This document shows, in pieces, positions 6,020 through 60,642 of a stretch of 64,000 bases of DNA. The notes below the pieces were generated by a model that was given only the letters and a program-made list of their open reading frames with translations, had not been told where the DNA came from and ran no database searches. A program made the translations under genes and the position numbers. The DNA is from an uncultured Planctomycetota bacterium (GTDB lineage Bacteria > Planctomycetota > PLA2 > JAEUHO01), in assembly GCA_963752285.1 (NCBI GenBank), contig CAVVXN010000004.1:1-64000 (forward strand), given 5' to 3'. Every line of letters begins with the position of its first letter. Positions within the stretch are counted from its first letter, which is position 1.

Positions 6020-7138
6020 ATGCGTCAGCGTACCCAGTTCATCGGAATCGACCTCCACCTCCACAGCGTCACCCTTGCGGTCCTGCCCGAGGACGCTGCG
6101 GCGTGCAGCCAGGTCCAGACGATGCTCCCCGAGCCGGCCCGCATGCGGCGGTTCTTCCAGAGGGTCTTGAAGGAGGGACCCGTGCGGGCCTGCTACGAAG
6201 CCGGCGGGTGCGGGTACGTCCTGCAGCGAACGCTCGCCACGTGGGGCGTGCCGTGCGAGGTCGTCGCCCCGAGTCTGATCCCCCGTCGCGCGGGCGATCG
6301 CATCAAGACCGATCGTCGGGACGCCGAGAAGCTCGCCCGATACTACCGCGCCGGCGAGCTCACGGCGGTGCGCGTGCCCACCGAGGAGGAGGAACGTACT
6401 CGATCCCTCATCCGCTGCCGGTGGGCGCTGACGCGCGAGATCCTCGCCTCGCGGCACTACATCCTCAAGCTGCTCCAGTCGCGCGGACATCGCTTCTCCG
6501 GCGGCAAGAACTGGAGCGACGCCTTCTGGAAGTGGTTGCGCGGGCTCGCGCTCGTGGGGGACGACGCGCTCACGCTCGGCCTCTACATCGAGCTCCTCGA
6601 GCACAAGCTCGCTCTGCGCACTCGCATCGACGACCGCCTGCAGAAGATCGCCGGCGAACCCCGATGGCGAGAGGTGGTCGGGCGGCTGCGGTGCCTGCGG
6701 GGCATCGAGACCCTCAGTGCGCTCACCCTGGCCAGTGAAATCGCCGACGCCAAGCGCTTCGCCCGCCCCCGCCATCTCATGGCGTACCTGGGCCTGAACG
6801 TCAGCGAGTACTCCTCCGGCAGCTCGGAGCGTCGCGGCGGAATCACGAAGGCGGGCAACTCCCACTGCCGCCATGTGCTTGTCGAGGCTGCATGGCACTA
6901 CCGCCACCCGCCTCGGTTGGGCACGGCCCTGGCGGCGCGCATGGCGGGTCAGACCGAGAGCGTGCGGCTCCACGCCATGCGCGCCCAGCGTCGTCTGCAC
7001 CGGCGGTTCAAGGAGCTCGAGATCCGGATGGCCTCCACGAAGGCCGTGGTCGCCGTGGCTCGCGAGCTCGTCGGGTTCGTGTGGGCGCTCATGCAAGGCG
7101 AGGAGCGTTTCCTGGCCGCGCGAGGGCCGCAGAAGTAG
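6020..7138 (+). CDS. IS110-family DEDD transposase/recombinase
   Basis: FIGIDLH, CYEAGGCG, IKTDRRDA, YLGL..SEYSSG and GGITKAGN motifs; GGAGG RBS before ATG 6020. Confidence 0.95.
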   Translation: MRQRTQFIGIDLHLHSVTLAVLPEDAAACSQVQTMLPEPARMRRFFQRVLKEGPVRACYEAGGCGYVLQRTLATWGVPCEVVAPSLIPRRAGDRIKTDRRDAEKLARYYRAGELTAVRVPTEEEERTRSLIRCRWALTREILASRHYILKLLQSRGHRFSGGKNWSDAFWKWLRGLALVGDDALTLGLYIELLEHKLALRTRIDDRLQKIAGEPRWREVVGRLRCLRGIETLSALTLASEIADAKRFARPRHLMAYLGLNVSEYSSGSSERRGGITKAGNSHCRHVLVEAAWHYRHPPRLGTALAARMAGQTESVRLHAMRAQRRLHRRFKELEIRMASTKAVVAVARELVGFVWALMQGEERFLAARGPQK

Positions 7139-7370
7139 TTTCGGTCGGGGAGGCACGTCGCGAGGGAACCCTCGTCACCACTGTGCGAGCCCGGGGGCGG
7201 AGCCTCTGTGCATTCGCGGTGCCAGAGAGAGGTCACCTCGACGGACAACGTTCCATGCGGTTTCGATCCGCGAACATCAGACTGTCACGACGTCGAAGCG
7301 TCCTCCCCGGCCCTCTCCCCTTCCTGCCCGCCCCGTAGGGTCCCCCGGGCTCGGACAGGTCGGTCACCGC
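7139..7370 (+). ncRNA. Putative IS1111 bridge RNA / seekRNA
   Basis: Contains CACCACTG (7176-7183) and TGCCAG (7220-7225), which match the two strands of the pre-insertion target, and ACATCAGAC (7274-7282), which matches the circle junction. Boundaries are approximate. Confidence 0.75.
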
Positions 7371-7546
7371 TTGACGGCGGCGGCCACATCAGTGGTGCGC
7401 GAGGGCGAGGACGCGGGCCACGCGGGGAATCCGCTCCGGGGTGGTGGCCGGGGCCGCGTCGGGGGCGCCGGGCGCTACGTCGTCGCCCACGGCGGGCGCA
7501 CTCCGTCCCCCGCGCCGGGCCGGCAGGCGGATGGTCACCCGCCCGC

Positions 7547-8010
7547 TCACGGTGCGAGCTCCGCGGAGAGCCCCTGGATCCCGGTCGCCCGGAAGGCCAC
7601 CACCGCCGTCCCCGCGGCCCCGTCGTAGTCGATCCCCTCGACCAGTAGCCGCATGACCCGGGCCTGCTCCTCGGCGTGGAGAACCTCCCACACGGGGTCG
7701 AACAGCGTGAGCGCGCGCCGCAGGTCAACGGGATCGACCTCGGCACCCTGCTCACGCACCGCCTCGAGCACCCGCGCCTGTAGGCCCGCGTCTCGCCCGA
7801 CGGCCCGGATCTGCGCGACGACCAGCGACTCGATCGTGTGCACCGGGGCGGTCGGGTGCGGGCAGGCCTTCCACCCGTCCTTCTGCGTGCGGCGGCAGAG
7901 GTAGTAGCGGTAGACGCGGCTGCCTCGCCGAGTCCACGCCGCGCCCATCGTTGCCCGCCACGGCGCGGAGCGGAGCAACCCCGAGAGGAGCGACGTCCCG
8001 CGGCGGCCGC
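7547..8010 (-). pseudogene. Large serine recombinase remnant (zinc-ribbon and C-terminal part only)
   Basis: LLSGLLR..M....RVYRYYLC.....GWKACP...IESLVV..I...FDPVWEVL..EQARVMRLLVEGIDYDG; no catalytic N-terminal domain. Confidence 0.8.
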
Positions 8011-8212: not shown

Positions 8213-9241
8213 CTAACGCGCGAGGACCTTCAGGTCATCGCCAATGGACTCCCATCGCTCCCGGAAGGCAGCAAGCAGCGCATCGTGGTCCATGGCGCGC
8301 GCAGCTGCTTCTGTCGCCATGCCCTCGCGAACGAGCTGGGGTGGCTCCGGCTGCGCTTCGTCGCGGACGACAATGCGTACCCGTATGGGCTCGGCTTCCG
8401 CCTCCTCCGGCGCGGCGTGCGCGGGGTCGCCCAAGGCCCGCCGCGAGATCTCGACGCTCACGTGGAATCGCGCCAGCACGTCAGCCTCAGCCGCATCACG
8501 TTGCATCCAGCGACCGTACCACTCGTCGGCGGTGCCTTCGTCGCCATCAGTCCACCGCCAAATCTCGGCGCGGACGCGCTGGAGGAGCGTGTCCGCAACG
8601 GCCGCGACGACACGCATGCGGATCTCGTAGTCAAAACGCAGGTACCAGGCCACACCGCTCTCGAAGGCCGCGACTGCGTCCTTGAGTGTTACCGGGGATA
8701 CCGACCGCGGGACCCCTTCACGCCGACCCCACGCCACGAAGAGAAGGAGGTTGTCGTAGAGCGCAGACGTGGCATCGACCGCATGAGCGTAGGCTTCTCC
8801 GGATGAGACAAGGAGAACCTGTTCGACGCCGGAGCCCGCGAGCAAGTGCTGGACCCGTACTGCCTGGAGGTCCGGGGCGTCGCTCAGAGTCCGCGCTCGG
8901 TCCTGTGCGCTGCCCTCCGGCGCTCGCGCAACCAGGAGCCGCAGCGAGCCGGTGGCGTGACGTCCTTCACGCGCCGATGTAGAGGTGTCGAACAGCTCCC
9001 GTCCCGGCCCCCACATCTTCTGGTCGATTCGGGCGGTTGCTGGGGAACTGAGCCTGTACTCGAAGTTCCACCCTTGGGCTCCGCGAACGTTGGCGCCCAT
9101 ACCGTCCACGAGCGGAATCTGCTTGACTCCGTCAACCCAGCCTGGTTCGTCGGACGTCGAAACGCGACCAGGCGAGCTGACCCTATCGCCGCATCCGATG
9201 GCTGCCCCGACCAGCACCACGATTGCGATCAGCCGCAACAT
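8213..9241 (-). CDS. Hypothetical lipoprotein
   Basis: Signal peptide and lipobox MLRLIAIVVLVGAAIG-C; lower-GC island cargo. Confidence 0.6.
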   Translation of the reverse strand: MLRLIAIVVLVGAAIGCGDRVSSPGRVSTSDEPGWVDGVKQIPLVDGMGANVRGAQGWNFEYRLSSPATARIDQKMWGPGRELFDTSTSAREGRHATGSLRLLVARAPEGSAQDRARTLSDAPDLQAVRVQHLLAGSGVEQVLLVSSGEAYAHAVDATSALYDNLLLFVAWGRREGVPRSVSPVTLKDAVAAFESGVAWYLRFDYEIRMRVVAAVADTLLQRVRAEIWRWTDGDEGTADEWYGRWMQRDAAEADVLARFHVSVEISRRALGDPAHAAPEEAEAEPIRVRIVVRDEAQPEPPQLVREGMATEAAARAMDHDALLAAFRERWESIGDDLKVLAR

Positions 9242-9438
9242 GCCTTGACTCCGAGGGTGCCTTGCCCGGTCGGGAGGCAGTGTACAGTGCGTTTGTCGAT
9301 CCCGCGTCGTGCAGCCTCTCGGGATCACGCCGGCGAGGGCCTGACGGATACGCGGCCAGCGGTTCGGGCCATGCTGGCATCGCCGGCGGCCCCGCGGGTG
9401 GCTCGTGGGGATGACTCTAGGCCAAGTGCGAGGCGAGA

Positions 9439-9590
9439 GTGCTCGACGGCGTAGGCTCAGTGGGGACTCTTTGCATGCACGTGCGCGAACATGTCCGCGG
9501 GTGACCGCACGTCGAGGGCTCACCGAGAGGAGATGGTGCTCGACGGTGCGAAGTCGGCGGGGACTTGCTGCATGCACGTGTGCGAATCTG
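9439..9590. repeat. Imperfect ~55-bp direct repeat, two copies, period 97 bp
   Basis: GTGCTCGACGG...GGGGACT...TGCATGCACGTG(C/T)GCGAA at 9439-9493 and 9536-9590; an extra TGCATGCACG at 9589-9598. Confidence 0.65.
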
Positions 9591-9807
9591 CATGCACGCG
9601 GCTGCGGGAGCCGATCCAATCGGGAGTGTAGGATGGTCCGGGCGTGTGATCGTGACGGCGGGCGTCGGCGGTCGGCTGTGCCGTCGCCCCGTGCAGGGGA
9701 TGGCCGCGGGAGTCCTCAGCCAGCGTCGCAGGTGTGCAGGGTGCAGGAGATGATCCGGCGTTGCCGAGACCACCGGGGCGTCGCGGCGGCGGGAGGAGAG
9801 GAGCGAA

Positions 9808-10380
9808 TTGACTCATCCGATCGACCACGTGGCCCTGCTGGTGCCGCGGATCGAGCTCGTGCTCGAGAAGCTCGGCGGCCTGGCCACCGAGGCTGGCGAC
9901 ATCGAGGAGTTCCCCTCCGAGGGGACCCGGGAGCTCTACGTCGGCGGGGAAGGGCGTCAGGCCAGGCTCCTCTTGATGGAGGCGCGGGGAGACCAGGGCC
10001 CTTACGCCAGAGCGTTGGCGAAGCGGGGGCCGGGTTTGCACCACCTGGCGCTGGACGTTTTGGACCTGGATGCCTTCCTGGTCGGGCTCCGGGGCTGGCT
10101 GGTCCACCCGGCCGGCCTGCCGGAGCTGGCCGTTTCGCGCACCGTCTGGCTCGCCAGGCCAGGGATCCCCACGCTGCTGGAGATTCACGAGGCAAAGCCC
10201 GGCTCCGGGGAGCCCGTGGTGGAGGGCCTCGAGGTCCCAGTACCTGCGGGGCTCGCCGAGCTCCTGCATCTCCGGGTGGGGGAGGAGCCGGTGGCGGGGC
10301 TTCTCCCCTCTCCTGACGACGCCTGCTGGCTGCGCCTGGGCGGGCGGCGGCTTTCGGTGGAGGAGCTCCTGGACGTCTGA
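9808..10380 (+). CDS. VOC/glyoxalase family protein (methylmalonyl-CoA epimerase-like)
   Basis: IDHVALLV, EEFPSEGTRELYV and KRGPGLHHLALDV motifs. Confidence 0.8.
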   Translation: MTHPIDHVALLVPRIELVLEKLGGLATEAGDIEEFPSEGTRELYVGGEGRQARLLLMEARGDQGPYARALAKRGPGLHHLALDVLDLDAFLVGLRGWLVHPAGLPELAVSRTVWLARPGIPTLLEIHEAKPGSGEPVVEGLEVPVPAGLAELLHLRVGEEPVAGLLPSPDDACWLRLGGRRLSVEELLDV

Positions 10381-13656: not shown

Positions 13657-15477
13657 TCACCCCGCGAGCGCGACCGCCGCCGCGATCTGCGACAGGTGGG
13701 TCAGCCCCTGGGGGAAGTTCCCGAGCATGGCCCCGGACGCAAGATCGACCTCCTCCGAGAAGAGGCCGAGGTCGTTGGCCGTCGCCAGGGCCCGCGCGTA
13801 GACCTCGCGCGCCTCGTCGAGGCGGCCCTGCCGGGCCAGCACCTCGGCGAGCCAGAACGTGCAGGCGATGAACGACCCCTCCAGCCCATCGAGCTGGTCC
13901 GAGCCCGCGCCGTACCGGCGGAGGAGACCGTCCTCCTCGAGCTCCTCGCGGATCGCGTCCGTGGTGCGGACCATGCGTGGGTCGTCGTAGCCCACGAACC
14001 CGAACACGGGCAGCAAGAGCAGCGCGGCGTCCATCGCCTCGCCCCCGAGGGTCTGCACGAACACGCCGCGGTCCGCGTCGTAGCCCTCGTCCTCGATCGC
14101 CTCGCGGATCGCCGCGCACTCCTGTTTCCAGGCGTCCACCGGGCCGTCCCGTCCGAGCGCCTCGGCCAGCCGGACCCCCCGGTCGAAGGCCGTCCAGCAC
14201 ATGGCCTTCGAGTGCACGAAGTGGCGTCGCTCTCCCCGGACCTCCCAGATGCCGTGGTCGGCCAGGCGCCAGCACTTCCGGGCCTCCTCGACCAGATCGC
14301 AGAGGAACGCCCAGTACTCGTCGTCGGGCGAGGCGCCGCGCTCGTGGCGGCGCCAGGCGAGGTCGAGCAGCTCGCCGTAGACGTCGTGCTGTCGCTGTGT
14401 CTCCGCGGCGTTGCCGATTCGGACCGGGCTCGACCCCCGGTAGCCGGAGAGCTCGGGTACCTCGTGCTCGGGCAGGCGACGCTCGCCACCCACGCCGAAG
14501 AGAACCTGCACCTCGCGCGCGCTGCCCGCGGCGCTCCGCGTCACGAATCGCGAGAAGCCGTCCGCCTCCTTCTCGTAGCCGAGCTGCCCGAGCGCACGCA
14601 TGGCGAACACGGAGTCGCGGATCCACGTGAACCGGTAGTCCCAGTTGCGGGAGCCTCCCAGCACCTCCGGGAGGGAGGTCGTGGCCGCCGCCGCCATCGC
14701 GCCGGTCGGCGCGTTCGTGAGGCCCTTCAGGACGACGGCCGATCGGCGTGTGTGCTCGTCCGACACGAGGTCGTGGTCGCCTTGATCGCTCCAGGCGCGC
14801 CACCAGTCGCGCGTCTCCTCGAGGCGCTCGTCGATCTCCTCGGACGTCGAGGGCCGCGCCACGCCGCGGTCGAGCTCCTCGGGGCGCCGGTGCTCGATCG
14901 CGAGGCGGAGACGTTCTCCCTCCCTGACGACCGCCTTCCCTCGGAGCGCGTGGCGTTCGTGGCGTTCGAGAGGGAGGTCACCGCTCACGAGGAGGCCCGA
15001 GCTCCCGCCCATCAGGCAGAAGTACGAGTCGTCCTCGGCGGCCCGGACCCACGGCGCCACCGCGCCGTAGTCGAAGCGCGGCCGGGCGTCCAGCTCGAGC
15101 TCGACCTCCCCCCGGACGCCCTCGACGACGCGGAGGAGCTGGCGGTAGGGGGCGTGCCGTCCGCCGCGGCGCATCGCGAAGAAGTCGAGGAGTCGCGCCT
15201 CGCCCTCGTCCGTCCGGAACGTGGTCTCGAGGACCAGGGAGGGACCCTCGTACCGACGCGTCGTGTCGAACGCTCCCGTGGGCTTGAGGGCCAGGAACCC
15301 GCCCTTTCGAGGGTCCAGGAGCGCGGCGAAGCACGAGGCGGAGTCGATGCGCGGCATGGCGCACCAGACGATGGTCCCGTCCCGGGCGACGAGCGCGGCC
15401 GCGTGACAATCCGAGAGGTATCCGCAGTCCGCGATGGAGGGGCCGGGGCCGTCGTGCTGGTCCTTCGCTCCCGCCAT
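13657..15477 (-). CDS. Glycoside hydrolase family 15 (trehalase/glucoamylase-like)
   Basis: AAATTSLPE, RNWDYRFTWIRD, GIWEVR, NDLGLFSEE and GNFPQGLTH motifs. Confidence 0.95.
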   Translation of the reverse strand: MAGAKDQHDGPGPSIADCGYLSDCHAAALVARDGTIVWCAMPRIDSASCFAALLDPRKGGFLALKPTGAFDTTRRYEGPSLVLETTFRTDEGEARLLDFFAMRRGGRHAPYRQLLRVVEGVRGEVELELDARPRFDYGAVAPWVRAAEDDSYFCLMGGSSGLLVSGDLPLERHERHALRGKAVVREGERLRLAIEHRRPEELDRGVARPSTSEEIDERLEETRDWWRAWSDQGDHDLVSDEHTRRSAVVLKGLTNAPTGAMAAAATTSLPEVLGGSRNWDYRFTWIRDSVFAMRALGQLGYEKEADGFSRFVTRSAAGSAREVQVLFGVGGERRLPEHEVPELSGYRGSSPVRIGNAAETQRQHDVYGELLDLAWRRHERGASPDDEYWAFLCDLVEEARKCWRLADHGIWEVRGERRHFVHSKAMCWTAFDRGVRLAEALGRDGPVDAWKQECAAIREAIEDEGYDADRGVFVQTLGGEAMDAALLLLPVFGFVGYDDPRMVRTTDAIREELEEDGLLRRYGAGSDQLDGLEGSFIACTFWLAEVLARQGRLDEAREVYARALATANDLGLFSEEVDLASGAMLGNFPQGLTHLSQIAAAVALAG

Positions 15478-15978
15478 CGTCCGCCTGCCCGTCCGTCACC
15501 GGCCCCGCGCCACGCGCGCGGGCGCCGGCCCCTCACGAGGTCCCGTTGCGGCCTGGCCGGCGCCCGCACATCGTACGTGACACGACGAGGCACCGCACCG
15601 CCCGCGGGGCCGGACCCCGGAGGTCGCCGCGCGCGCGGCTCCCCGGAACACGGCGTGACGCAGGGACCGCGGTCGGTCGGGCCCGGCGCGCGTGCGGTCC
15701 ACGCGCGTCCCCGGGGACACCCTCACGCGGCCAAGATGCGGCGCACACCCGTGAACGGTACGGTTTCCCATCCGTCTACGGACGGGGCGCACCCGCTGTG
15801 AGCGTGCGCGCGACTCGGGCGTGTCTCCGTCCGCGGGGACAGAGGACCCGCGTCTTCATGAGCCCGCTCTTCGTGCGCGCACGGAGGCCGGCGCGGTGGC
15901 ATGATGGATGGTGTCTCTCGGCGGCGCGAGCGAGGGGCACATGACTCCTGTCGGCTTCGCGTCGATGAGGAGACGGCC

Positions 15979-16749
15979 ATGGCCATCACGTTTCGTGGAA
16001 GGGCGGCGTGGGGTCCGGTGTCCATGGGAGAGCCCGCAGGTTCCGATCCCTGCGCGTGCCTGGGCGACATCGAGACGCGTCTTCGCAGCCGGCTCGGTGC
16101 CGCCTCGCCGCTGCTCGGCGACCTCGCCCGCTTTGGCGACTGCGTGAACCTCTCCGACCGGCACTTCCTCCTCGATCGTTGCGAGCACGACGCCGGCGGG
16201 CGGTTCGCGCTCGCCGTCCACGTCCTCGGCGCACGGGCGGAGGCGGCTCCGTACGACGAGTACCTCGGCGGCGTGTGGGTGCTCGGCGACACGCGAACCG
16301 GTCGCCTTTGCGTCTCGCCTCGCATCCTCCGGCTCGTCTCGCGACTCGGCGCGATCGTGCCCGTGATCGGGCGCTTCCCGACCGAGGAGTACGTCCGTAC
16401 CACCGCCCACGACGTGCACGGCGACCTCGACGCCGTCGTGCATGCGGCCTTCTCGGCGCGCGTGGTCGAGGCGGCGGCGCACGCGCTCCGCGCCGCGATG
16501 CGGATCCCCGCGCGCGACCCCGTGGAGGCGCTCCTCCGGCGCGGGATCCGCCTCGCGCGGTCCGAGCGGGAGACGCTGGCCACGACCTTCGGCGACGAGG
16601 GCGAACCCACGCTCTACGGCGTCTTCCTCGCGCTCCTCGGGGCCGCCCAGCGCGCCCTGGATCTCGCGGACCGCGATCGACTCGAGCGACTGGCGGGCAC
16701 GATCGTCGAGGCGCTGACCTTGGCGGGGCCCGTGCTCGCGCGGGGCTGA
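15979..16749 (+). CDS. Hypothetical protein (weak DUF932-like resemblance)
   Basis: GAGGAG RBS before ATG 15979; typical codon usage; LCVSPRILRLVSRLGAI motif. Confidence 0.6.
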   Translation: MAITFRGRAAWGPVSMGEPAGSDPCACLGDIETRLRSRLGAASPLLGDLARFGDCVNLSDRHFLLDRCEHDAGGRFALAVHVLGARAEAAPYDEYLGGVWVLGDTRTGRLCVSPRILRLVSRLGAIVPVIGRFPTEEYVRTTAHDVHGDLDAVVHAAFSARVVEAAAHALRAAMRIPARDPVEALLRRGIRLARSERETLATTFGDEGEPTLYGVFLALLGAAQRALDLADRDRLERLAGTIVEALTLAGPVLARG

Positions 16750-52707: not shown

Positions 52708-53283
52708 CTACCCCTGCGGGGCGGGCCGCGCGCCACGGAGCCGACGGACCTCGACCGCTGGCCGGCCCCGTTCGACCCTCAGGATCGCCACGCTGCCGAG
52801 GTCGTCCTCGCCCTCGGCGTCGGAGGGGAGCGTCGGGCTCCCGGGGTTGAACACCACGACCCCGTCGATGCTCGTCCGCATCGCGCGGTGGGTGCCGCCG
52901 AAGGCCATGGCGTGGACGGGTCCGCCGAACCGACTCGCGAGGACGTCCTCGAACGCGTTCCCGAGCAGGTCGAGCCCCGAGTCCGTGACCGCGATCTTCG
53001 TCCCTGGCTTGGTCGCGTCGAACGTGAGCCCGATCCGAACCGGGCCCGCCTCGAGCACCATGGGCTCGCCCCGCTTCGGCGTGAGCACCGGGGCGATCTC
53101 GCGGAGCCGGTCGAGCACGCCCTTCTGTCCCACGTCGCCGAGGTGCACGAGGAGCCCGCACCCGCGGAAGGCCTCGCGCGCCGCGTCGGGCAGGTCGCTT
53201 CCGTCGGGACGCCGGCAGTGCGTGTCGGCCAGGAAGCCGATCCGCCGCGCGTCGGTCGTCTCGATCGATACGGACTTCGCCAT
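52708..53283 (-). CDS. YfcE-like metallophosphoesterase (degenerate)
   Basis: ADTH, HLGD, FGGTH and FNPGS motifs; the GNxD motif is absent. Confidence 0.75.
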   Translation of the reverse strand: MAKSVSIETTDARRIGFLADTHCRRPDGSDLPDAAREAFRGCGLLVHLGDVGQKGVLDRLREIAPVLTPKRGEPMVLEAGPVRIGLTFDATKPGTKIAVTDSGLDLLGNAFEDVLASRFGGPVHAMAFGGTHRAMRTSIDGVVVFNPGSPTLPSDAEGEDDLGSVAILRVERGRPAVEVRRLRGARPAPQG

Positions 53284-53367
53284 GGAGGGTGCGTGTAGCA
53301 CGCGCGTCCTCGGCAGACAACGCCCCGACGTCGATCCGGCAGGGCCTCCGCGCACCCGCCCGCGGGG

Positions 53368-53999
53368 CGGGCCCCAGGCGCACGCCGGACACCCTGCGGT
53401 CCGAACGCGAGGCTCCCGTCCCTCGGTGCGTGCACTTGTCGCGCCACGTGCTCGCGTCCCGACGCACGATTCGCAAAGAGGCCGGGCCCGGCCCCCCTAC
53501 GGCATGGGTGTGCTGTCGCACACCCGAGCCTACCCCCCAACCCGGTCGCTGGGGCGCCTCTTCATGAGGTCGCCTGCTGAGAACGGGAGGGCAACGTGAA
53601 AATGGTCGGGGCGACTGGATTCGAACCAACGGCCCACCCGCCGCTTCGCGTCGGGCGTGCCGTTGGGAACCAGCGACGCCGCCACTTCAGGGGGGCCTTG
53701 ACGGCCCGACCTACGCGCGACTCGCGCGGTCCGGCGCACGCCTGGAACCCGATGCCTGCGTTGCTCGTCGTCCACGACCCCTTCGGGGTCGCCTCCTCCT
53801 CGCGCCTTGGCCTCGGGCCCCAGGCGCACGCCGGACACCCTGCGGTCCGAACGCGAGGCTCCCGTCCCTCGGTGCGTGCGCGTGTCGCGTCGCGTGCTCG
53901 CGTCCCGACGCACGATTCGCACGCAGGCCGGGCCCGGCCCCCCTACGGCATGGGTGTGCTGTCGCACACCCGAGCCTACCCCCCAACCCGGTCGCTGGG
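53368..53999 (-). repeat. tRNA-linked ~186-bp direct repeat, two copies (53368-53553, 53814-53999)
   Basis: Near-identical copies offset by 446 bp; each contains the hairpin GGGTGTGC-N4-GCACACCC. Confidence 0.93.
53603..53628 (-). repeat. Duplicated 26-bp 3' end of tRNA-Pro (att-like)
   Basis: TGGTCGGGGCGACTGGATTCGAACCA is identical to 54047-54072. Confidence 0.92.
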
Positions 54000-54046
54000 T
54001 GCTTCTCCGTGCGGTCGCGTCGTGCCAACGGGCGGGAGACGAGAGT

Positions 54047-54124
54047 TGGTCGGGGCGACTGGATTCGAACCAGCGACCTCCTGAACCCCATTCAGGCGCG
54101 CTACCAAATCTGCGCCACGCCCCG
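54047..54124 (-). tRNA. tRNA-Pro (GGG)
   Basis: CGGGGCG acceptor stem, anticodon arm CCTGA-ATGGGGT-TCAGG, GGTTCGAATCC T-arm, encoded CCA. Confidence 0.97.
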
Positions 54125-54297
54125 ACGCAGGGGGGAGAGCATACGCGGGCGGGCCAGGGGGAGAGCCGTTTGGATCGACCGGGGGGTGGACGGCGGCGCG
54201 TGCGCGTTCGCGCCCGGGCTTGCCTCCGGGGCGGGGCCCCACGTACCCTCGTCCGCGCGCCAGAGACCAGCGGTGCGGCAGGCCTGGGAGGCGACGA

Positions 54298-55668
<1,371 letters not shown>

Positions 55669-55867
55669 GCGACCGCCACGCCGCGCGCGTCCGCGTATCC
55701 CTCGCGACACGTCGTTCCTGATCGCGCCCGGCGCTACCCGTTCGCCACGCGCGCGGCGCCTCGGACGCGGTGAGCCGCCGGCGATCGACGAAGCGTGTCC
55801 CTCGCACGGGCCGATTCTGCGCCGCCTCGAGAACGCGCGTCTCCCGGAGGGAACGCCGCGTCACCTT

Positions 55868-55943: not shown

Positions 55944-58043
55944 ATGCGCGTCCCGTTCCTCTCGTCGTCGATCGCGTGCGTCCTCGCGTCGCTCTTCCTC
56001 TCGCTCGGCGCCGCCGAGGCGTTCGCGCACGGCGGTCAGTTCCGCGGACCCGGCGACGGGGTCCCACCGAACCTCAGGGCGCCCACGGACCCGACGCCGC
56101 CTCCGCCGCCGACCCCGAGCGGCGGGCCGACGCCGACAAGCGGTCCCTCGCCCACGCCCGTCACGCCGCCGACGGGGCCGACCGCTCCGACCACCACGCC
56201 CCCCGTCGGGACGCCGAGCCTGCCCTCGACTCCGGGGCGACGCACGACCCCCGTCACGCCCGACGACTGGCGCTTCTGGTACCACCAGAACAAGGATCAG
56301 CTCGAGAACCTGAAGCGCGCCATCTACGGGCTCCACGCGAGCGGCGGGGGGATCTTCCAGCACGGCGGAGAGGCCCCCACGAACCAGGATGCCGCGACGC
56401 GCCTCACGCAGCGGAAGGTGGTCGAGATGATCGTCCCGACGCTGCTCTGGGCGATGGATCCCACGCACGGCCTCGACGACGACACGCGCTCCGGCGCCTA
56501 CCTCGCGCTCGCGAAGGTGACGCGGGACGTCGCGCACGTGGACCTGATCGCGGCGGCGATCGATCGGGAGAAGAAGCAGCCCGTGCTGGTGAGCGGCTCC
56601 GCGGCGCTGGCCCTGGGGATGCTCCGCCGCGAGCGCCCCGAGGACCAGCTCCCCGCGAAGGACGTCGATCGCGCACGCGAGATCCTGTTCCAAAGCTTCG
56701 AGGACGACGAGCAGCCGACCCGCGTGCGGGCCTTCGCAGCCGCGGCGATCGGCCTGCTCGGCGACCAGCCGACGGGATCGGGCGCCTACGCGGGCGACCG
56801 TGCGGCGGCGGCGCACGCGACCACGAAACACCTCTTCGACCTCCTCGATCGCCCGTGGCCCGACGCCGACCTGTCGATCTCGCTGGCTCTCGCCGTCGGC
56901 CTCCAGCCGCCCGCCTCCCTGGACGCTTCCGAGCTCGACGTCCTCACGCGGATCGCGGTGCTCGGGCGGCTGTCGAGCCGCCGCCTCGGCGAGCTCGAGC
57001 GTGCGTACGCCGCCCTGGCCCTCGGTCGGATCGGCACGTCCGCCCAGATCCCCGTGCTCTCGAACCTGGTGGTCGCGCGCCGCGGCGTGAGCGACTCCGT
57101 GCGGCGGAGTGCGACGATCGGCCTCGGGCTCCTCGCGCGGCACACGGACGGGTCGGGGCGCGTCGAGCTCGCGAGGACCCTCGTCCACGCGATCGATCGG
57201 ACCCGCGACCCGACCACCCGCGACTTCGCGCTGATCAGCCTGGCGCACGTGCTCGTCGCCGAGGTCGGTGCGGGATCGACCGACGTTCTCGAGGGCACGA
57301 AGGCCACGGAGACCCTGCTCGCGCGCTCCGACCGGCGCGCGTCCATCGAACAGCCCTTCGCGTCGCTCGCGTTGGGCCTGGTCGCCGGGGCGGTGCCGGA
57401 CGAGCTCGAGGTAGACGCCTGGCAGGCCCTCCGTGAGCGCACGGTCCAGTCGCTCCGACTCGGTCTCGCCGACCGGAGCCGCGGTCCCCGGGCCCGCGCA
57501 GCCTGCGCCACCGCGCTCGGCATCGCGCGGGACCGGGGCAGCGTGAAGACGCTCGTCGAGGTGCTCGGTGGACGCGACGACGACCCCGAGCTCCGCGCGT
57601 ACGCGGGGCTCGCGATCGGGCTGATCGGCGTTCCGGCCAACGAGGCCGTACGGGCGCTCGGCGAGGCCGTACGCGAGCGGTCGTCCGAGGTGCTGCGCCG
57701 TGAGTGCGCGGTCGGGCTCGGGCTGCTCGGGAACCCCGCGATCCCCGGCACGAATCAAAACGCGCTCGACCTGCTCCTCCACGAGCTCGAGAACGCGCGG
57801 ACCGAGGCGCACAAGGCCGAGGTCGTGACCGCGATCGCGCGCATCGGCGACCACCGCGCCGTGGACCGCCTCGTGGCGCTCCTTCGAGACCCGCACGAGC
57901 AGGACGCGACGCGTGCGATGGCCTGCGTGGGGCTGGGGCAGATCGGGGACCTCGAGTGGATCCCGTCGCTGGCCCGCCTCACCAAGGACCACAACTACCG
58001 CGCGTCCACCGACTTCGTACGGGAGCTGATGAGCGTCCTCTGA
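55944..58043 (+). CDS. Secreted HEAT/PBS-lyase repeat protein with Pro/Thr-rich N-terminal linker
   Basis: AAGGAG RBS; signal peptide ending AFA-HGGQFRGP; many A.ALG repeats. Confidence 0.88.
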   Translation: MRVPFLSSSIACVLASLFLSLGAAEAFAHGGQFRGPGDGVPPNLRAPTDPTPPPPPTPSGGPTPTSGPSPTPVTPPTGPTAPTTTPPVGTPSLPSTPGRRTTPVTPDDWRFWYHQNKDQLENLKRAIYGLHASGGGIFQHGGEAPTNQDAATRLTQRKVVEMIVPTLLWAMDPTHGLDDDTRSGAYLALAKVTRDVAHVDLIAAAIDREKKQPVLVSGSAALALGMLRRERPEDQLPAKDVDRAREILFQSFEDDEQPTRVRAFAAAAIGLLGDQPTGSGAYAGDRAAAAHATTKHLFDLLDRPWPDADLSISLALAVGLQPPASLDASELDVLTRIAVLGRLSSRRLGELERAYAALALGRIGTSAQIPVLSNLVVARRGVSDSVRRSATIGLGLLARHTDGSGRVELARTLVHAIDRTRDPTTRDFALISLAHVLVAEVGAGSTDVLEGTKATETLLARSDRRASIEQPFASLALGLVAGAVPDELEVDAWQALRERTVQSLRLGLADRSRGPRARAACATALGIARDRGSVKTLVEVLGGRDDDPELRAYAGLAIGLIGVPANEAVRALGEAVRERSSEVLRRECAVGLGLLGNPAIPGTNQNALDLLLHELENARTEAHKAEVVTAIARIGDHRAVDRLVALLRDPHEQDATRAMACVGLGQIGDLEWIPSLARLTKDHNYRASTDFVRELMSVL

Positions 58044-58084
58044 CGGCGCCCCGACCGCCGTCACCGACCCCGTTCGTCCGGTCT

Positions 58085-59550
58085 CAAGGGAGAATGCGTG
58101 GAAACCTCGTAGACGGGGGACGGGAACCGGAGTTCCCGAACTCCTCCAGACCGTTCCCACCGCCGAAGTGCCGGTGACCACACGACTTGCGGCGACTCTC
58201 CACCGACTCTCCACCCTGAGGGCGGGAATGCGGGTTCCCGACCCCCGGTCGTACGCATTGTGGAGCCGCGGGCCGAAGGCCCCGTCCGGACGCCGCAAGT
58301 CCTTGCCGCCCAACGCCCGCATCCCCGCCCGTGGGTTCTCGTCGGCGTGGAGACTGACTGGCCCGGCGCTTGCCTTCCCTCTCTCGCCCCCAATGAGGGG
58401 CAGACGCTCTGTGAAAGACAAGCACTGACGAACGGACGACGTGTTCAGTCGAGCACCGAGGGACGGTGGCGCCGGGTCGCGAGCCTAGGAACCGCGACTG
58501 CATCACCGCCGAGGGGGCAAAGAGCGCAGTCGGGATCGCCTGTCAAGCGATCGCCTGCGCGAGGCGAAGCCATGAGCCCGCCCCCCGGCGTGATGAACGG
58601 AGCGCCACGACGGTCGAAAGGTGCGAAATCCCAGGAGAGCCGGCAGCCCGGAAACGGGCCAGGCCGACCCATCCGATCCGCAAAGCCCTGAGGTCCAAGC
58701 AGGTAGGGACGTCACCCTGCCCGAGGGCGAGAGGGCCGGCCCCGCGACTACAAGCGGGCGCCCGGACGGATGGGGGGAACGCTCTGGAGGGACGAAGCCC
58801 AGGAAGGCATCGTCGGTCGGGCGGCTTCGGCCGTCCGACGACAGCACGGACTCGCCGCGGGAAGGAAGCCTTGAAGGCGACCGCGCGTTCCTCGGTCTCC
58901 CCCGGGAGACCTGGAGCCGCGGGAACGTCAGGAGGGCAGGGGCCCCGAGAGGGGTACCGACCGTGGGCGAGGGGAAAGCCTTGGAGGGCGAAGCCCGAGG
59001 ACGCTCCGGCGCTTCGGCGCCGGGAGGATCGGTGGTTTCAGGCCGCGAGGGGGGTAGCCAAACCCCGGACGCGGCACGCGGCGGCGGGGGGACCCGCCGT
59101 CATCCCCAGCGGATCCGCCGGTCCGGCATGTGTCGTAGGGCAAGAGAAGCTCAGGAGAGGCAGCACTGCGTGACAGGTTCCGCGCCGGCTTCGGCCGGCG
59201 GGCGGGGACGACGCGGTGCGGGGCTCGGAGGGCACGTCTCTGAAGGGGCGCGAAAGCGCAAGGAGGGCCTCCGGCGACCTCGGTCACCGGATGGCCGCGA
59301 GGATGAACTCCCCGATGGGCGTCGAAACGCCGTACGGGGTGGGCGGAACCCATGACCGCCCGTGGCCTCGCGGTCCGCGTCCTCGGAGCGCCACGAAACC
59401 CCACGAGAGGCAGCCGAGGCAACGTGTTCACGAGGCGCTCGGCAACCTTCCCAGCCCTCACTCCTCTGGAGGGCCCGATCGACGCTCGAATGCGAACTCC
59501 CTCGTCAGGCTTTGTTGAGCCCGGGGTGTGGGCAACCACGCCCCGGGCTC
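58085..59550 (+). ncRNA. Candidate large structured non-coding RNA, family unassigned
   Basis: About 1.5 kb between convergent genes with no credible ORF; recurring A-rich motifs; several UUCG/GNRA-capped hairpins on the + strand; terminator at the end. Confidence 0.65.
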
Positions 59551-59560
59551 TCTCCATTTC
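59517..59560 (+). terminator. Strong hairpin / intrinsic terminator
   Basis: GAGCCCGGGGTGTGG-GCAA-CCACGCCCCGGGCTC, a 15-bp stem with one G-U pair, followed by a pyrimidine-rich tail. Confidence 0.75.
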
Positions 59561-59628
59561 CAGGGCGCGGACCGCCGGTGTGGACCGCGCGTCGCACGTC
59601 TCTGGGGCCGCCCACGGGCCGGCCCCGG

Positions 59629-60642
59629 CTACAGCAGGTCCTCGGCCTCGTCCTTCGGGCCGCGCAGCATCAGCGAGCGCACGACCTCCTTCGGCGGCTT
59701 CCCTTCGTGGACCGCGTAGTAGACCTGCTCCGAGATCGGGAGCGCGAGTCCGTGCTCGTGCATCAGCTCGTGCACGGGCCGCGACGTCTTGATGCCCTCC
59801 GCGACCATGCTGGTGCTCGCCGCGATGTCCTCGGCGCGCTCGCCGCGCCCGAGGCGTTCGCCGAACGTGCGATTGCGGCTCGCGCGCGAGTAGCACGTCG
59901 TCAGGAGGTCCCCGAGCCCGGACATGCCGAAGAAGGTCCTTCGCCGTCCACCGAGGCGCTCGCCGAGGCGGGCCATCTCCACGACCCCGCGCTGCACCAG
60001 CGCCGCCTTCGCGTTCTCGCCGAGCTTCAGCCCGTCGCACATGCCGGCGGCGATCGCGATGACGTTCTTCAGCACGCCGCCGAGCTCCACGCCGAGGACG
60101 TCGGAGTTCGAGTAGACGCGGAAGCGCTCGCCCGCGAAGGTGTGCTGGACCCCACGGAGCACGGCGGCGTCCGGGCACGCGACGACCGTGGCCGCGGGAA
60201 GTCCGTGCGCGATCTCGCGGGCGATGTTGGGACCCGACAGGACCGCGATCGGCCGCCCGCCCGCGAGCTCCTCGAGGATCTGCGTCGGCCGCTTGAGCGT
60301 GCCGTCCTCGAGACCCTTCGTCACCGAGACGATGGGGACGCCCGGCGGGAGCACGCGCGCGTGCGCGGACCACACCTCACGGAGGTACGTCGTGGGGACC
60401 GCCGAGACGATGAGGTCCACGCCTTCGAGGACCTCCTCGAGCCGACTCGAGACCGCGATCGACCGCGGGATCTCGAAGCCCGGGAGGTACCGCGGGTTCG
60501 TTCGCGTCTCGGCCATGTGCGTGGCGTACTCGGGGTCGTACCCCCACAGCGCCACCCGCTCGACGCGGCTCGCGAGGTACGTCGCGAGCGCCGTGCCCCA
60601 GCCCCCGTCACCCACGACCACGACGCTTCGAGCCTGGTCCAT
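59629..60642 (-). CDS. gpsA: NAD(P)H-dependent glycerol-3-phosphate dehydrogenase
   Basis: GDGGWGTALA, TKGLE, LSGPN.A.E, ELGGVLKNVIAIA, GLGDLLTTC and SRNR motifs. Confidence 0.97.
   Translation of the reverse strand: MDQARSVVVVGDGGWGTALATYLASRVERVALWGYDPEYATHMAETRTNPRYLPGFEIPRSIAVSSRLEEVLEGVDLIVSAVPTTYLREVWSAHARVLPPGVPIVSVTKGLEDGTLKRPTQILEELAGGRPIAVLSGPNIAREIAHGLPAATVVACPDAAVLRGVQHTFAGERFRVYSNSDVLGVELGGVLKNVIAIAAGMCDGLKLGENAKAALVQRGVVEMARLGERLGGRRRTFFGMSGLGDLLTTCYSRASRNRTFGERLGRGERAEDIAASTSMVAEGIKTSRPVHELMHEHGLALPISEQVYYAVHEGKPPKEVVRSLMLRGPKDEAEDLL

Follow-up and report, generated by a model that had tools for sequence, protein, structure and literature searches.

A candidate gene for a large, modular structured RNA of about 1.1 kb in an uncultured member of the Planctomycetota

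In a 64,000-nucleotide (nt) stretch of DNA from an uncultured Planctomycetota bacterium (contig CAVVXN010000004.1, positions 1 to 64,000, here called the window), we analyzed the gap between a gene encoding a HEAT-repeat protein, whose stop codon lies at 58041-58043, and gpsA, whose stop codon lies at 59629-59631; these bounds confirm those given in an earlier sequence-only reading of the same DNA. The gap contains, on the + strand at 58420-59513, a unit of about 1,094 nt which is conserved non-coding sequence and not protein-coding, and which was delimited by 73 frame-aware homologue alignments, the onset of a purine skew and a predicted fold with a minimum free energy (MFE) of -640.2 kcal/mol. 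Together with a hairpin at 59517-59550, this unit is probably the gene for a previously uncatalogued, conserved, and highly structured RNA of about 1.1 kb, and we are confident that it represents a family of conserved structured non-coding RNAs. The sequence-only reading had proposed a large, modular, structured + strand RNA of no known family in this gap, and the proposal is supported by the lack of Rfam matches, by conservation at the nucleotide level, by compensatory changes, and by an excess of G-U over A-C combinations in the supported helices.

Conserved sequence without a conserved reading frame

Three + strand open reading frames (ORFs) of 235, 244, and 100 amino acids stand open in the region (58466-59173, 58621-59355, and 59216-59518, respectively), the first of them is present in the protein database as P0121, and its database relatives reach E = 1.7e-40, all of which could be taken to mean that the region encodes one or more real proteins of the kind annotated as hypothetical. 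The genome is GC-rich (about 72% guanine plus cytosine), and the genes flanking the region have GC fractions of 0.88-1.00 at the third and 0.33-0.60 at the second codon position, whereas no codon-position periodicity is seen in 58060-59560, where the three phases are alike. None of the four ORFs of the region belongs to a Pfam family.

The ORF at 58466-59173 has three database relatives (E = 1.7e-40, 2.8e-19, and 4.6e-8), the overlapping ORF at 58621-59355, which lies in a different frame, retrieved 42 cluster representatives at E ≤ 1e-3, and a profile search retrieved 45 proteins, so that two overlapping frames both find relatives; overall, 73 distinct relatives (P0122-P0194) were gathered. 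Single relatives follow one reading frame of the window, change to another, and then come back. This was quantified with a dynamic programme that aligns protein to DNA with a frameshift penalty of 12, keeping only ungapped blocks of at least 6 residues and at least 45% identity. Two or more reading frames of the window were needed by 71 of the 73 relatives and all three by 48, whereas frame switching was seen in 0 of 30 control homologues of the HEAT gene (43-51% identity). The conservation is therefore at the nucleotide level and is interrupted by insertions and deletions of any length. We regard the 235-residue ORF as spurious, given that it has no Pfam family and no periodicity at the third position and that its homologues switch between three frames, and the two ORFs that overlap it were judged in the same way; that real proteins are encoded here is extremely unlikely. 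The description of the gap as holding only low-quality ORFs was thus accurate, and a conserved coding signal, which the sequence-only reading had named as grounds for abandoning an RNA, is absent, as no reading frame is conserved among the 73 homologues.

High-GC non-coding DNA holds long open frames, from which gene callers report proteins, and at least 73 relatives of this unit sit in protein databases under the label 'hypothetical protein'. Spurious ORFs whose relatives change reading frame offer a practical route to conserved RNAs in high-GC genomes.

A scan of the 64-kb window with Rfam 15 at gathering thresholds returned only a tRNA (54050-54124) and nothing on the unit. A permissive scan of 57900-59800 (E up to 10) gave five sub-threshold chance matches, the best scoring 22.1 bits against a gathering score of 50, and four of the five fall on the 3' hairpin alone. 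There was no match to the Rfam 15 models for GOLLD, ROOL, OLE, HEARO, RNase P, tmRNA, rRNA, group I and II introns, self-cleaving ribozymes, or CsrB/Rsm, and the earlier statement that the region matches no known RNA family held in the strict and the permissive scan alike. In the literature covered, to which subscription journals do not belong, we found neither a description of such an RNA nor a report of a large non-coding RNA family for Planctomycetota.

Predicted fold and a repeated internal-loop module

The + strand of 58580-59560 folds with -555 kcal/mol (z = -4.45 relative to 20 shuffles), compared with -506 kcal/mol (z = -2.74) for the - strand. For the unit itself, the MFE structure predicted from the window sequence comprises 386 pairs. 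Covariation was counted by converting the aligned amino acids of the relatives to the nucleotides that their codons allow, and only fully determined positions were entered as cells. Data were obtained for 303 of the 386 pairs, amounting to 2188 cells, of which 1388 are unchanged, 236 are changed on one side and still paired, and 172 are changed on both sides and still paired. The number of double changes that keep a pair falls to 50-73 when the 3' partner is slid by ±1-3 positions; in 1000 row shuffles it was 123±5.1 and never reached 172, and paired cells numbered 1722.7±7.6 as against 1796 observed. Taken together, these counts are supportive of the predicted fold and not conclusive.

Several helices keep pairing through compensatory changes. 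The best of them are 58816-58825/58830-58839, 59163-59171/59211-59219, 58685-58689/58732-58736, 59026-59035/59115-59124, and 58942-58946/58951-58955, and a de novo scan of all position pairs passed nine stacks, which are these five helices and four others. The best covarying helix, also first in the de novo scan, belongs to a variable hairpin with a UUCG loop at 58816-58839 (+ strand, as are all the following elements of the RNA; 92 cells, 37 double changes at six pairs, 9 broken). The helix 59163-59171/59211-59219, which encloses the third UUCG hairpin, shows 12 double changes at six pairs (11 at five pairs in the de novo scan) and 2 broken cells. A 12-bp helix (58668-58680/58763-58774) that closes the sub-domain of module 2, described below, has 99 cells, of which 87 are unchanged, 9 changed on one side, 3 doubly changed, and none broken.

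Within the supported helices, G-U and U-G combinations outnumber A-C and C-A by 121 to 24, and the RNA strand is therefore the + strand, as had been supposed. The GNRA loops at 58651, 58947, 59089, and 59252 are conserved and the UUCG loops are not; all six tetraloop hairpins that the sequence-only reading had described as marks of a folded RNA are present, but the three UUCG hairpins among them are variable decorations. Neither the MFE structure nor a model constrained to include the eight modules described below is rod-like; both branch repeatedly and have four domains.

Folding in which the covariation counts were entered as soft constraints revealed a repeated module. The sequence-only reading had listed six strings of a motif A, seven of a motif B, and six hairpins, all of which are found exactly where it had placed them; the two motifs, however, do not recur independently but are the two strands of one paired element, motif A (…GCYYU-GRA-GGNN) pairing with motif B (NNCC-ANG-ARRGC) in one helix of 4 bp and another of 5-6 bp with a 3x3 internal loop between them. 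The module consists of a helix of 4-6 bp, a 3x3 purine loop (5'-ANG opposite 5'-GRA), and a second helix of 4-6 bp, and it occurs in eight copies, seven of which pair at long or medium range and the eighth of which lies in a local hairpin. Twelve of the 13 motif instances listed earlier are module strands. The thirteenth (58990) is a fully Watson-Crick version that pairs with 59377-59389, or else a competitor of module 7. Among the homologues, the loop bases are nearly invariant, namely the first and third bases of the B strand (A and G) and those of the A strand (G and A; G and G in module 2), while the middle bases vary. We also considered whether the 3x3 loops could be kink-turns or sarcin-ricin motifs, but neither appears to fit cleanly.

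Module 1 (58629-58792) pairs 5'-UCCC AGG AGAGC (58629-58640) with 5'-GCUCU GGA GGGA (58781-58792) and has 57 cells, 9 of them doubly changed and none broken; its loop bases are A in 14 of 15, G in 15 of 15, G in 38 of 38, and A in 11 of 12 cases. In module 2 (58685-58736), 5'-GCCCU GAG GUCC (58685-58696) is joined to 5'-GGGC GAG AGGGC (58725-58736), and of its 70 cells 11 are doubly changed, 25 are changed on one side but still paired, and 6 are broken. Module 3 (58868-58937) combines 5'-GCCUU GAA GGCG (58868-58879) and 5'-CGUC AGG AGGGC (58926-58937), its 113 cells including 2 double and 14 one-sided changes and 4 broken. For module 5 (58797-58989), formed by 5'-GCCC AGG AAGGC (58797-58808) and 5'-GCCUU GGA GGGC (58978-58989), there are 125 cells with 7 double and 4 one-sided changes and 4 broken, and its inner helix was also recovered by the de novo covariation scan. 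Module 6 (59149-59474), in which 5'-GCUC AGG AGAGG (59149-59160) would pair with 5'-CCUCU GGA GGGC (59463-59474), was placed by complementarity alone and has 6 cells, none broken.

Module 4 (59236-59411) pairs 5'-GUCUCU GAA GGGG (59236-59248) with 5'-CCCC ACG AGAGGC (59399-59411), with 34 cells, no double change, 2 one-sided changes, and 3 broken; module 7 (59256-59391) pairs 5'-GCGC AAG GAGGGC (59256-59268) with 5'-GUCCUC GGA GCGC (59379-59391), with 36 cells, 3 double and 2 one-sided changes, and 1 broken. In the model, the two are stacked head to head in opposite orientation, which would yield a nearly two-fold symmetric duplex. The MFE helix 58993-59004/59377-59389, with 4 double changes and 4 broken among its 50 cells, is a competitor of module 7. 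Module 8 is the local hairpin at 59042-59075 (5'-GCCGCG AGG GGGGU AGCCAA ACCCC GGA CGCGGC), in which two helices flank the loop: the outer one, 59042-59047/59070-59075, has 38 one-sided changes that stay paired, 1 double change, and 2-3 broken cells, and in the inner one, 59051-59055/59062-59066, 92-96 cells are unchanged.

All eight modules fit one nested fold of -633.3 kcal/mol, at a cost of 6.9 relative to the -640.2 kcal/mol of the MFE structure, in agreement with the earlier idea of an RNA built from a repeated module. The heptamer GGAGGGC occurs five times in 58450-59560, where 0.24 are expected from the rest of the window, and a strict module pattern is found 11 times on the + strand and twice on the - strand, as compared with 2.09±1.47 in 300 dinucleotide shuffles, none of which reached 11.

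Extent of the unit, its copies and its upstream region

The frame-aware homologue alignments span 58421-59554. Two of the relatives read from the end of the unit back into its start: P0140 passes through the terminal hairpin to 59554 and then resumes at 58421, and P0178, on a contig of 1206 nt, jumps from 59513 to 58422 without the terminal hairpin. They share the left junction (58421/58422) and differ in the right one (59554 and 59513). The purine skew sets in at the left boundary that they define, which is also where the 5' strand of a predicted closing helix lies. On the + strand, the purine fraction is 0.569 in 58420-59513 and 0.478 in 58085-58419, so that the purine richness reported earlier for the whole gap holds from about 58420 onward but not to the left of it. 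Folding of the sequence at 58044-58419 is not stronger than that of shuffles (z = -0.34 and -1.06), and 58085-58419 is, as far as visible, unconserved. From the shared left boundary and the poor folding of the left part it follows that the RNA measures about 1.1 kb (58420-59513, plus the hairpin at 59517-59550) and not about 1.45 kb as first proposed.

The hairpin at 59517-59550 (+ strand) has 15 bp and a GCAA loop and is followed by UCUCCAUUUCC; it may be a terminator or a structure of the 3' end, and it is found in P0140 but not at the P0178 junction. We considered domain V of a group II intron for it, in view of a similar size, the GAGC start, and the GNRA loop, and rejected this identity for want of the bulge, domain VI, the 5' GUGYG, and an Rfam match. 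An integron attC site was likewise rejected, since, judged by the attC consensus, there is a single core-like site in the wrong position. Downstream of the hairpin, a 29-nt imperfect repeat (72%) at 59576-59604 resembles 59214-59242 and includes an exact 11-mer, GCACGTCTCTG; its score of 27 is inside the shuffle range (maximum 31).

The sizes of the contigs that carry the homologues bear on a different kind of explanation. Of the contigs of the 45 proteins found by profile, 32 measure 1030-1170 nt, 6 measure 911-983 nt, and 4 measure 1206-1371 nt, and the remaining three, the only ones above 1400 nt, are of 1929, 2638, and 13802 nt, with P0158 on the last; the three relatives of the ORF at 58466-59173 are on contigs of 1102, 1064, and up to 1144 nt. 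The peak at unit length could reflect an abundant discrete transcript captured in RNA libraries, a conserved repeat that was collapsed, or a template that is circular or tandem, and the P0140 and P0178 junctions would point to tandem, circular, or permuted copies elsewhere. The unit could accordingly be a selfish or replicating non-coding element, either a circular RNA of about 1.1 kb, similar to viroids or Obelisks, or a circular or tandem DNA, of which the window holds an integrated copy. Circular or tandem templates produce end-to-start patterns such as those of these two relatives among the 73, the contigs of unit length and the four slightly larger ones would accord with this reading, and the ends of the unit are predicted to pair. 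The copy in the window, however, is chromosomal: it lies on a contig of 249,703 nt between the HEAT gene and gpsA, with ordinary genes on both sides and the same GC content as its surroundings, and neither a significant repeat of the unit nor a flanking duplication is seen on either side of it. A search for a second copy gave local alignments of the flanks that do not rise above shuffles and, by blastn against the rest of the window, only short chance matches; plasmid and phage collections contained no match to the unit. There is no match to a self-cleaving ribozyme or to any other Rfam family, the lack of a conserved frame leaves no Oblin-like protein, and the predicted fold is branched. In at least one homologue (P0150) the unit is followed by an unrelated 3' flank, P0158 is embedded in a contig of 13.8 kb, and contigs of unit length also arise from abundant transcripts and collapsed conserved repeats. 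On balance, we consider a selfish element unlikely. It is doubtful, too, that the unit represents a new class of giant bacterial RNA with two forms, a gene in the chromosome and a 1.1-kb molecule that is circular, circularly permuted, or tandem; such an RNA might be a naturally circularised particle, induced through sigma-54, whose eight purine loops and GNRA loops drive self-assembly into a higher-order body of RNA or of RNA and protein, or else the domesticated descendant of a viroid-like replicon.

Homologue contig sizes also cluster near 1100-1109 nt (11 contigs) and 1206-1211 nt (3 contigs), and the difference of about 100 nt would be compatible with circular assemblies that have terminal overlaps of differing k-mer size, a comparison that amounts to numerology without the contigs themselves.

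The sequence at 58085-58419 resembles an enhancer and a sigma-54 promoter region. A promoter-like element of the -24/-12 type, TGGCCCGGCGCTTGC (GG-N10-GC), lies at 58359-58373 on the RNA strand, 47 nt upstream of the unit, with GG at -24 and GC at -12 in the exact spacing. It is the only TGGC-N7-TTGC on either strand of the window, in the whole of which 0.90 are expected. Two palindromes, to which no strand is assigned, precede it as candidate upstream activator sites that may act as enhancers: GGGAAC-N4-GTTCCC at 58122-58137, about 231 bp upstream of the -24 element, and GGGAAT-N4-GTTCCC at 58224-58239, 102 bp from the first and about 129 bp upstream of the -24 element. These two sites, 58122 and 58224, are the only occurrences of the pattern GGGAAY-N4-GTTCCC in the 64-kb window, which makes four strand matches compared with 0.62±1.04 in shuffles, 1 of 100 of which reaches four. 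A sigma-54 promoter with upstream activator sites has, in its textbook layout and consensus, an arrangement like that of 58122-58373. The product of a gene at 54220-55668 carries Sigma54_activat, AAA lid, and HTH_8 domains, and a scan of 57950-59750 for sigma-70 promoters found nothing. Control of the unit by sigma-54 appears fairly likely from this arrangement. Between the palindromes, at 58193-58214, there is an exact tandem 11-mer (CGACTCTCCAC twice), whose CTCTCC is complementary to GGAGAG of motif B.

We propose that transcription would start near 58385 from the promoter at 58359-58373, activated by an enhancer-binding protein at the palindromes 58122 and 58224, possibly the product of 54220-55668, which is connected with them by proximity only. 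The homologue contigs of unit length, the promoter-like element, and the 3' hairpin are indirect signs that a discrete, stable RNA might be made. The 5' and 3' ends of the RNA would then pair in the closing helix, predicted in both the MFE and the constrained model between 58420-58452 and 59479-59512, at the end of which the P0178 junction (59513 to 58422) is found. Such an RNA might act in trans as a multivalent scaffold: the eight purine loops, which are nearly identical, and the four conserved GNRA loops could attach to a single kind of protein in several copies, probably to a dimer because modules 4 and 7 form a two-fold symmetric pair, or they could dock on each other, as happens in other large bacterial RNAs, and give rise to a compact or oligomeric RNA particle. 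The presence of eight near-identical loops on four arms, with the GNRA loops, would point to a multivalent scaffold, and we put forward only tentatively that the RNA is a scaffold for a repeated ligand, whether protein or RNA.

Several results weigh against this reading of the locus as a gene for a structured RNA with its own promoter. On the predicted fold, 392 of the 2188 cells are unpaired, and several MFE helices are contradicted, 58791-58799/58806-58814 with 41 broken cells, 59005-59012/59017-59024 with 31, and 59129-59136/59155-59162 with 25; some of these sit in length-variable hairpins, where the alignment, made at the protein level, is unreliable. A third or more of the positions in the covariation data are undetermined, and the row-shuffle control overstates significance because the homologue sequences are mutually related. 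Informative cells are few in the closing helix, which has only 14, and in modules 4 and 6. In a sliding scan, raw module counts were equal or higher at two unrelated GC-rich places, so that the case rests on conservation and not on the module count. The element TGGCCCGGCGCTTGC has two mismatches to the full 16-nt sigma-54 consensus, and matches of this quality are as frequent as expected (5 found, 5.02 expected). A scan of 57950-59750 for intrinsic terminators made no call, the 3' hairpin included.

The neighbourhood of the unit is not kept in other Planctomycetota. A profile of the neighbouring HEAT protein was run on genome contigs and gave 33 Planctomycetota loci for comparison. In none of the 33 does gpsA adjoin the HEAT gene, none of them holds the RNA, and a long non-periodic purine-rich stretch after the HEAT gene is found in none of the 30 with downstream sequence, which adds to the points against the proposed gene. 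The sequence-only reading had suggested collecting homologues with nhmmer and BLASTN in related genomes; among these 33 loci the approach came to little, with no nhmmer match to the gap and a single blastn match, and tblastn of 74 family proteins gave 0 matches at E ≤ 1e-4. The blastn match (L026 1908-1946, 42 nt, 83% identity, E = 0.001, to window 59194-59235) sits about 90 nt past the stop codon of the HEAT homologue, is followed by coding-like sequence, and is probably due to chance.

The same loci bear on whether the unit is a cis-acting untranslated region (UTR), belonging either to the HEAT gene as a long 3' UTR or to gpsA, for which it could be a leader or an antisense regulator. The unit lies between the two genes and shares its strand with the HEAT gene, and the terminator scan found nothing between the HEAT stop codon and the unit. 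A comparable region is missing, however, from the HEAT loci with downstream sequence, as is gpsA from the side of the HEAT gene, the family occurs alone on contigs of unit length, P0150 enters an unrelated 3' flank, and the unit has a promoter-like element of its own 47 nt upstream; a UTR is therefore very improbable.

The HEAT gene of the window probably starts at 55944 (the database form P0001, of 699 amino acids) rather than at 55770. All nine of its homologues that are named in their sources are called 'HEAT repeat domain-containing protein', six of them from Planctomycetota, one from Planctomycetes, and two from a 'bacterium', and the nearest relatives are just 49-51% identical. In other Planctomycetota, two HEAT paralogues in tandem or close to each other are frequent (L006, L008, L009, L012, L015, L020-L024, L027, L033), and the window has one.

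Likeness to known systems and other observations in the window

The unit shares with OLE, GOLLD, and ROOL the character of a long, stand-alone, highly conserved, and, by prediction, intricately folded RNA that is non-coding, has no obvious target, and was first seen by sequence analysis alone, and like them it contains many GNRA loops and conserved internal loops. The hosts of these three RNAs lie in phyla other than Planctomycetota. The unit differs from them in that it does not match their Rfam models, comes from Planctomycetota, has eight repeats of one internal loop and a sigma-54-type promoter element, and would be longer at about 1.1 kb (relative to the usual sizes of GOLLD and ROOL). 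To our knowledge, very few bacterial non-coding RNAs exceed 500 nt, ribosomal RNA aside, and the unit would be among the largest bacterial non-ribosomal RNAs. OLE is described as about 600 nt long and part of a ribonucleoprotein (PMC12054373), and GOLLD, ROOL, and OLE form homo-oligomeric complexes (PMC12286853). Each of these large RNAs opened new biology when it was found, most recently RNA-only cages.

Obelisks are described as apparently circular RNAs of about 1 kb that are rod-like and encode Oblins (10.1101/2024.01.20.576352). The unit resembles them in its size of about 1 kb, in its unit-length assemblies, and in the two assemblies that read end to start. Unlike an Obelisk, it has no Oblin ORF (no frame is conserved and no Pfam family was found, a judgement made without direct comparison to Oblin sequences), its predicted fold is branched instead of rod-like, it is chromosomal DNA where an Obelisk has a DNA-free genome, and it matches no ribozyme. 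Two non-coding 'rods' from tundra have ORFs under 95 amino acids, and the text of that paper contains neither GGAGGGC nor CTTCGG, a comparison made by text and not by sequence alignment (10.64898/2026.07.27.740603).

With regard to its putative control, the unit is comparable to the pairs Qrr/LuxO and GlmY/GlrR, in which a sigma-54-dependent regulatory RNA has an adjacent activator gene: there is a candidate -24/-12 element, upstream palindromes, and an NtrC-family activator gene nearby, the link to the activator being one of proximity alone. RNAs of the Qrr and GlmY type, of about 100-200 nt, work either through base pairing or as decoys for proteins, whereas the unit measures about 1.1 kb. 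A plausible sigma-54 switch would give a way to find the condition in which the RNA acts.

With CsrB and RsmZ, the unit has in common many repeats of a short, GGA-containing purine motif distributed over a single RNA, a layout suggesting that one protein is bound multivalently. CsrB-type RNAs carry GGA in hairpin loops or single strands. In the model of the unit, by contrast, GGA, GAA, and GAG are found in 3x3 internal loops opposite ANG and not in hairpin loops or single-stranded linkers, and the Rfam models for CsrB/Rsm are unmatched. Eight copies of one internal loop make an unusually regular arrangement, and the binding and assembly hypotheses that it suggests are directly testable.

Elsewhere in the window, three stretches of 600-1000 nt (7051-7650, 8821-9840, and 15331-16170) have no codon-position GC periodicity, and the whole-window Rfam scan was empty there. 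A direct repeat of 186 nt, at 53368-53553 and 53814-53999, is 96% identical between its copies, which are 446 nt apart. The 3' part of tRNA-Pro(GGG) has a 32-nt copy (94%) at 53603-53634, 444 nt from the tRNA-Pro gene itself (54047-54124, - strand); the copy falls within a stretch of about 1 kb without codon periodicity (53240-54350) that has no other Rfam match. This stretch resembles a duplication or integration scar at a tRNA.

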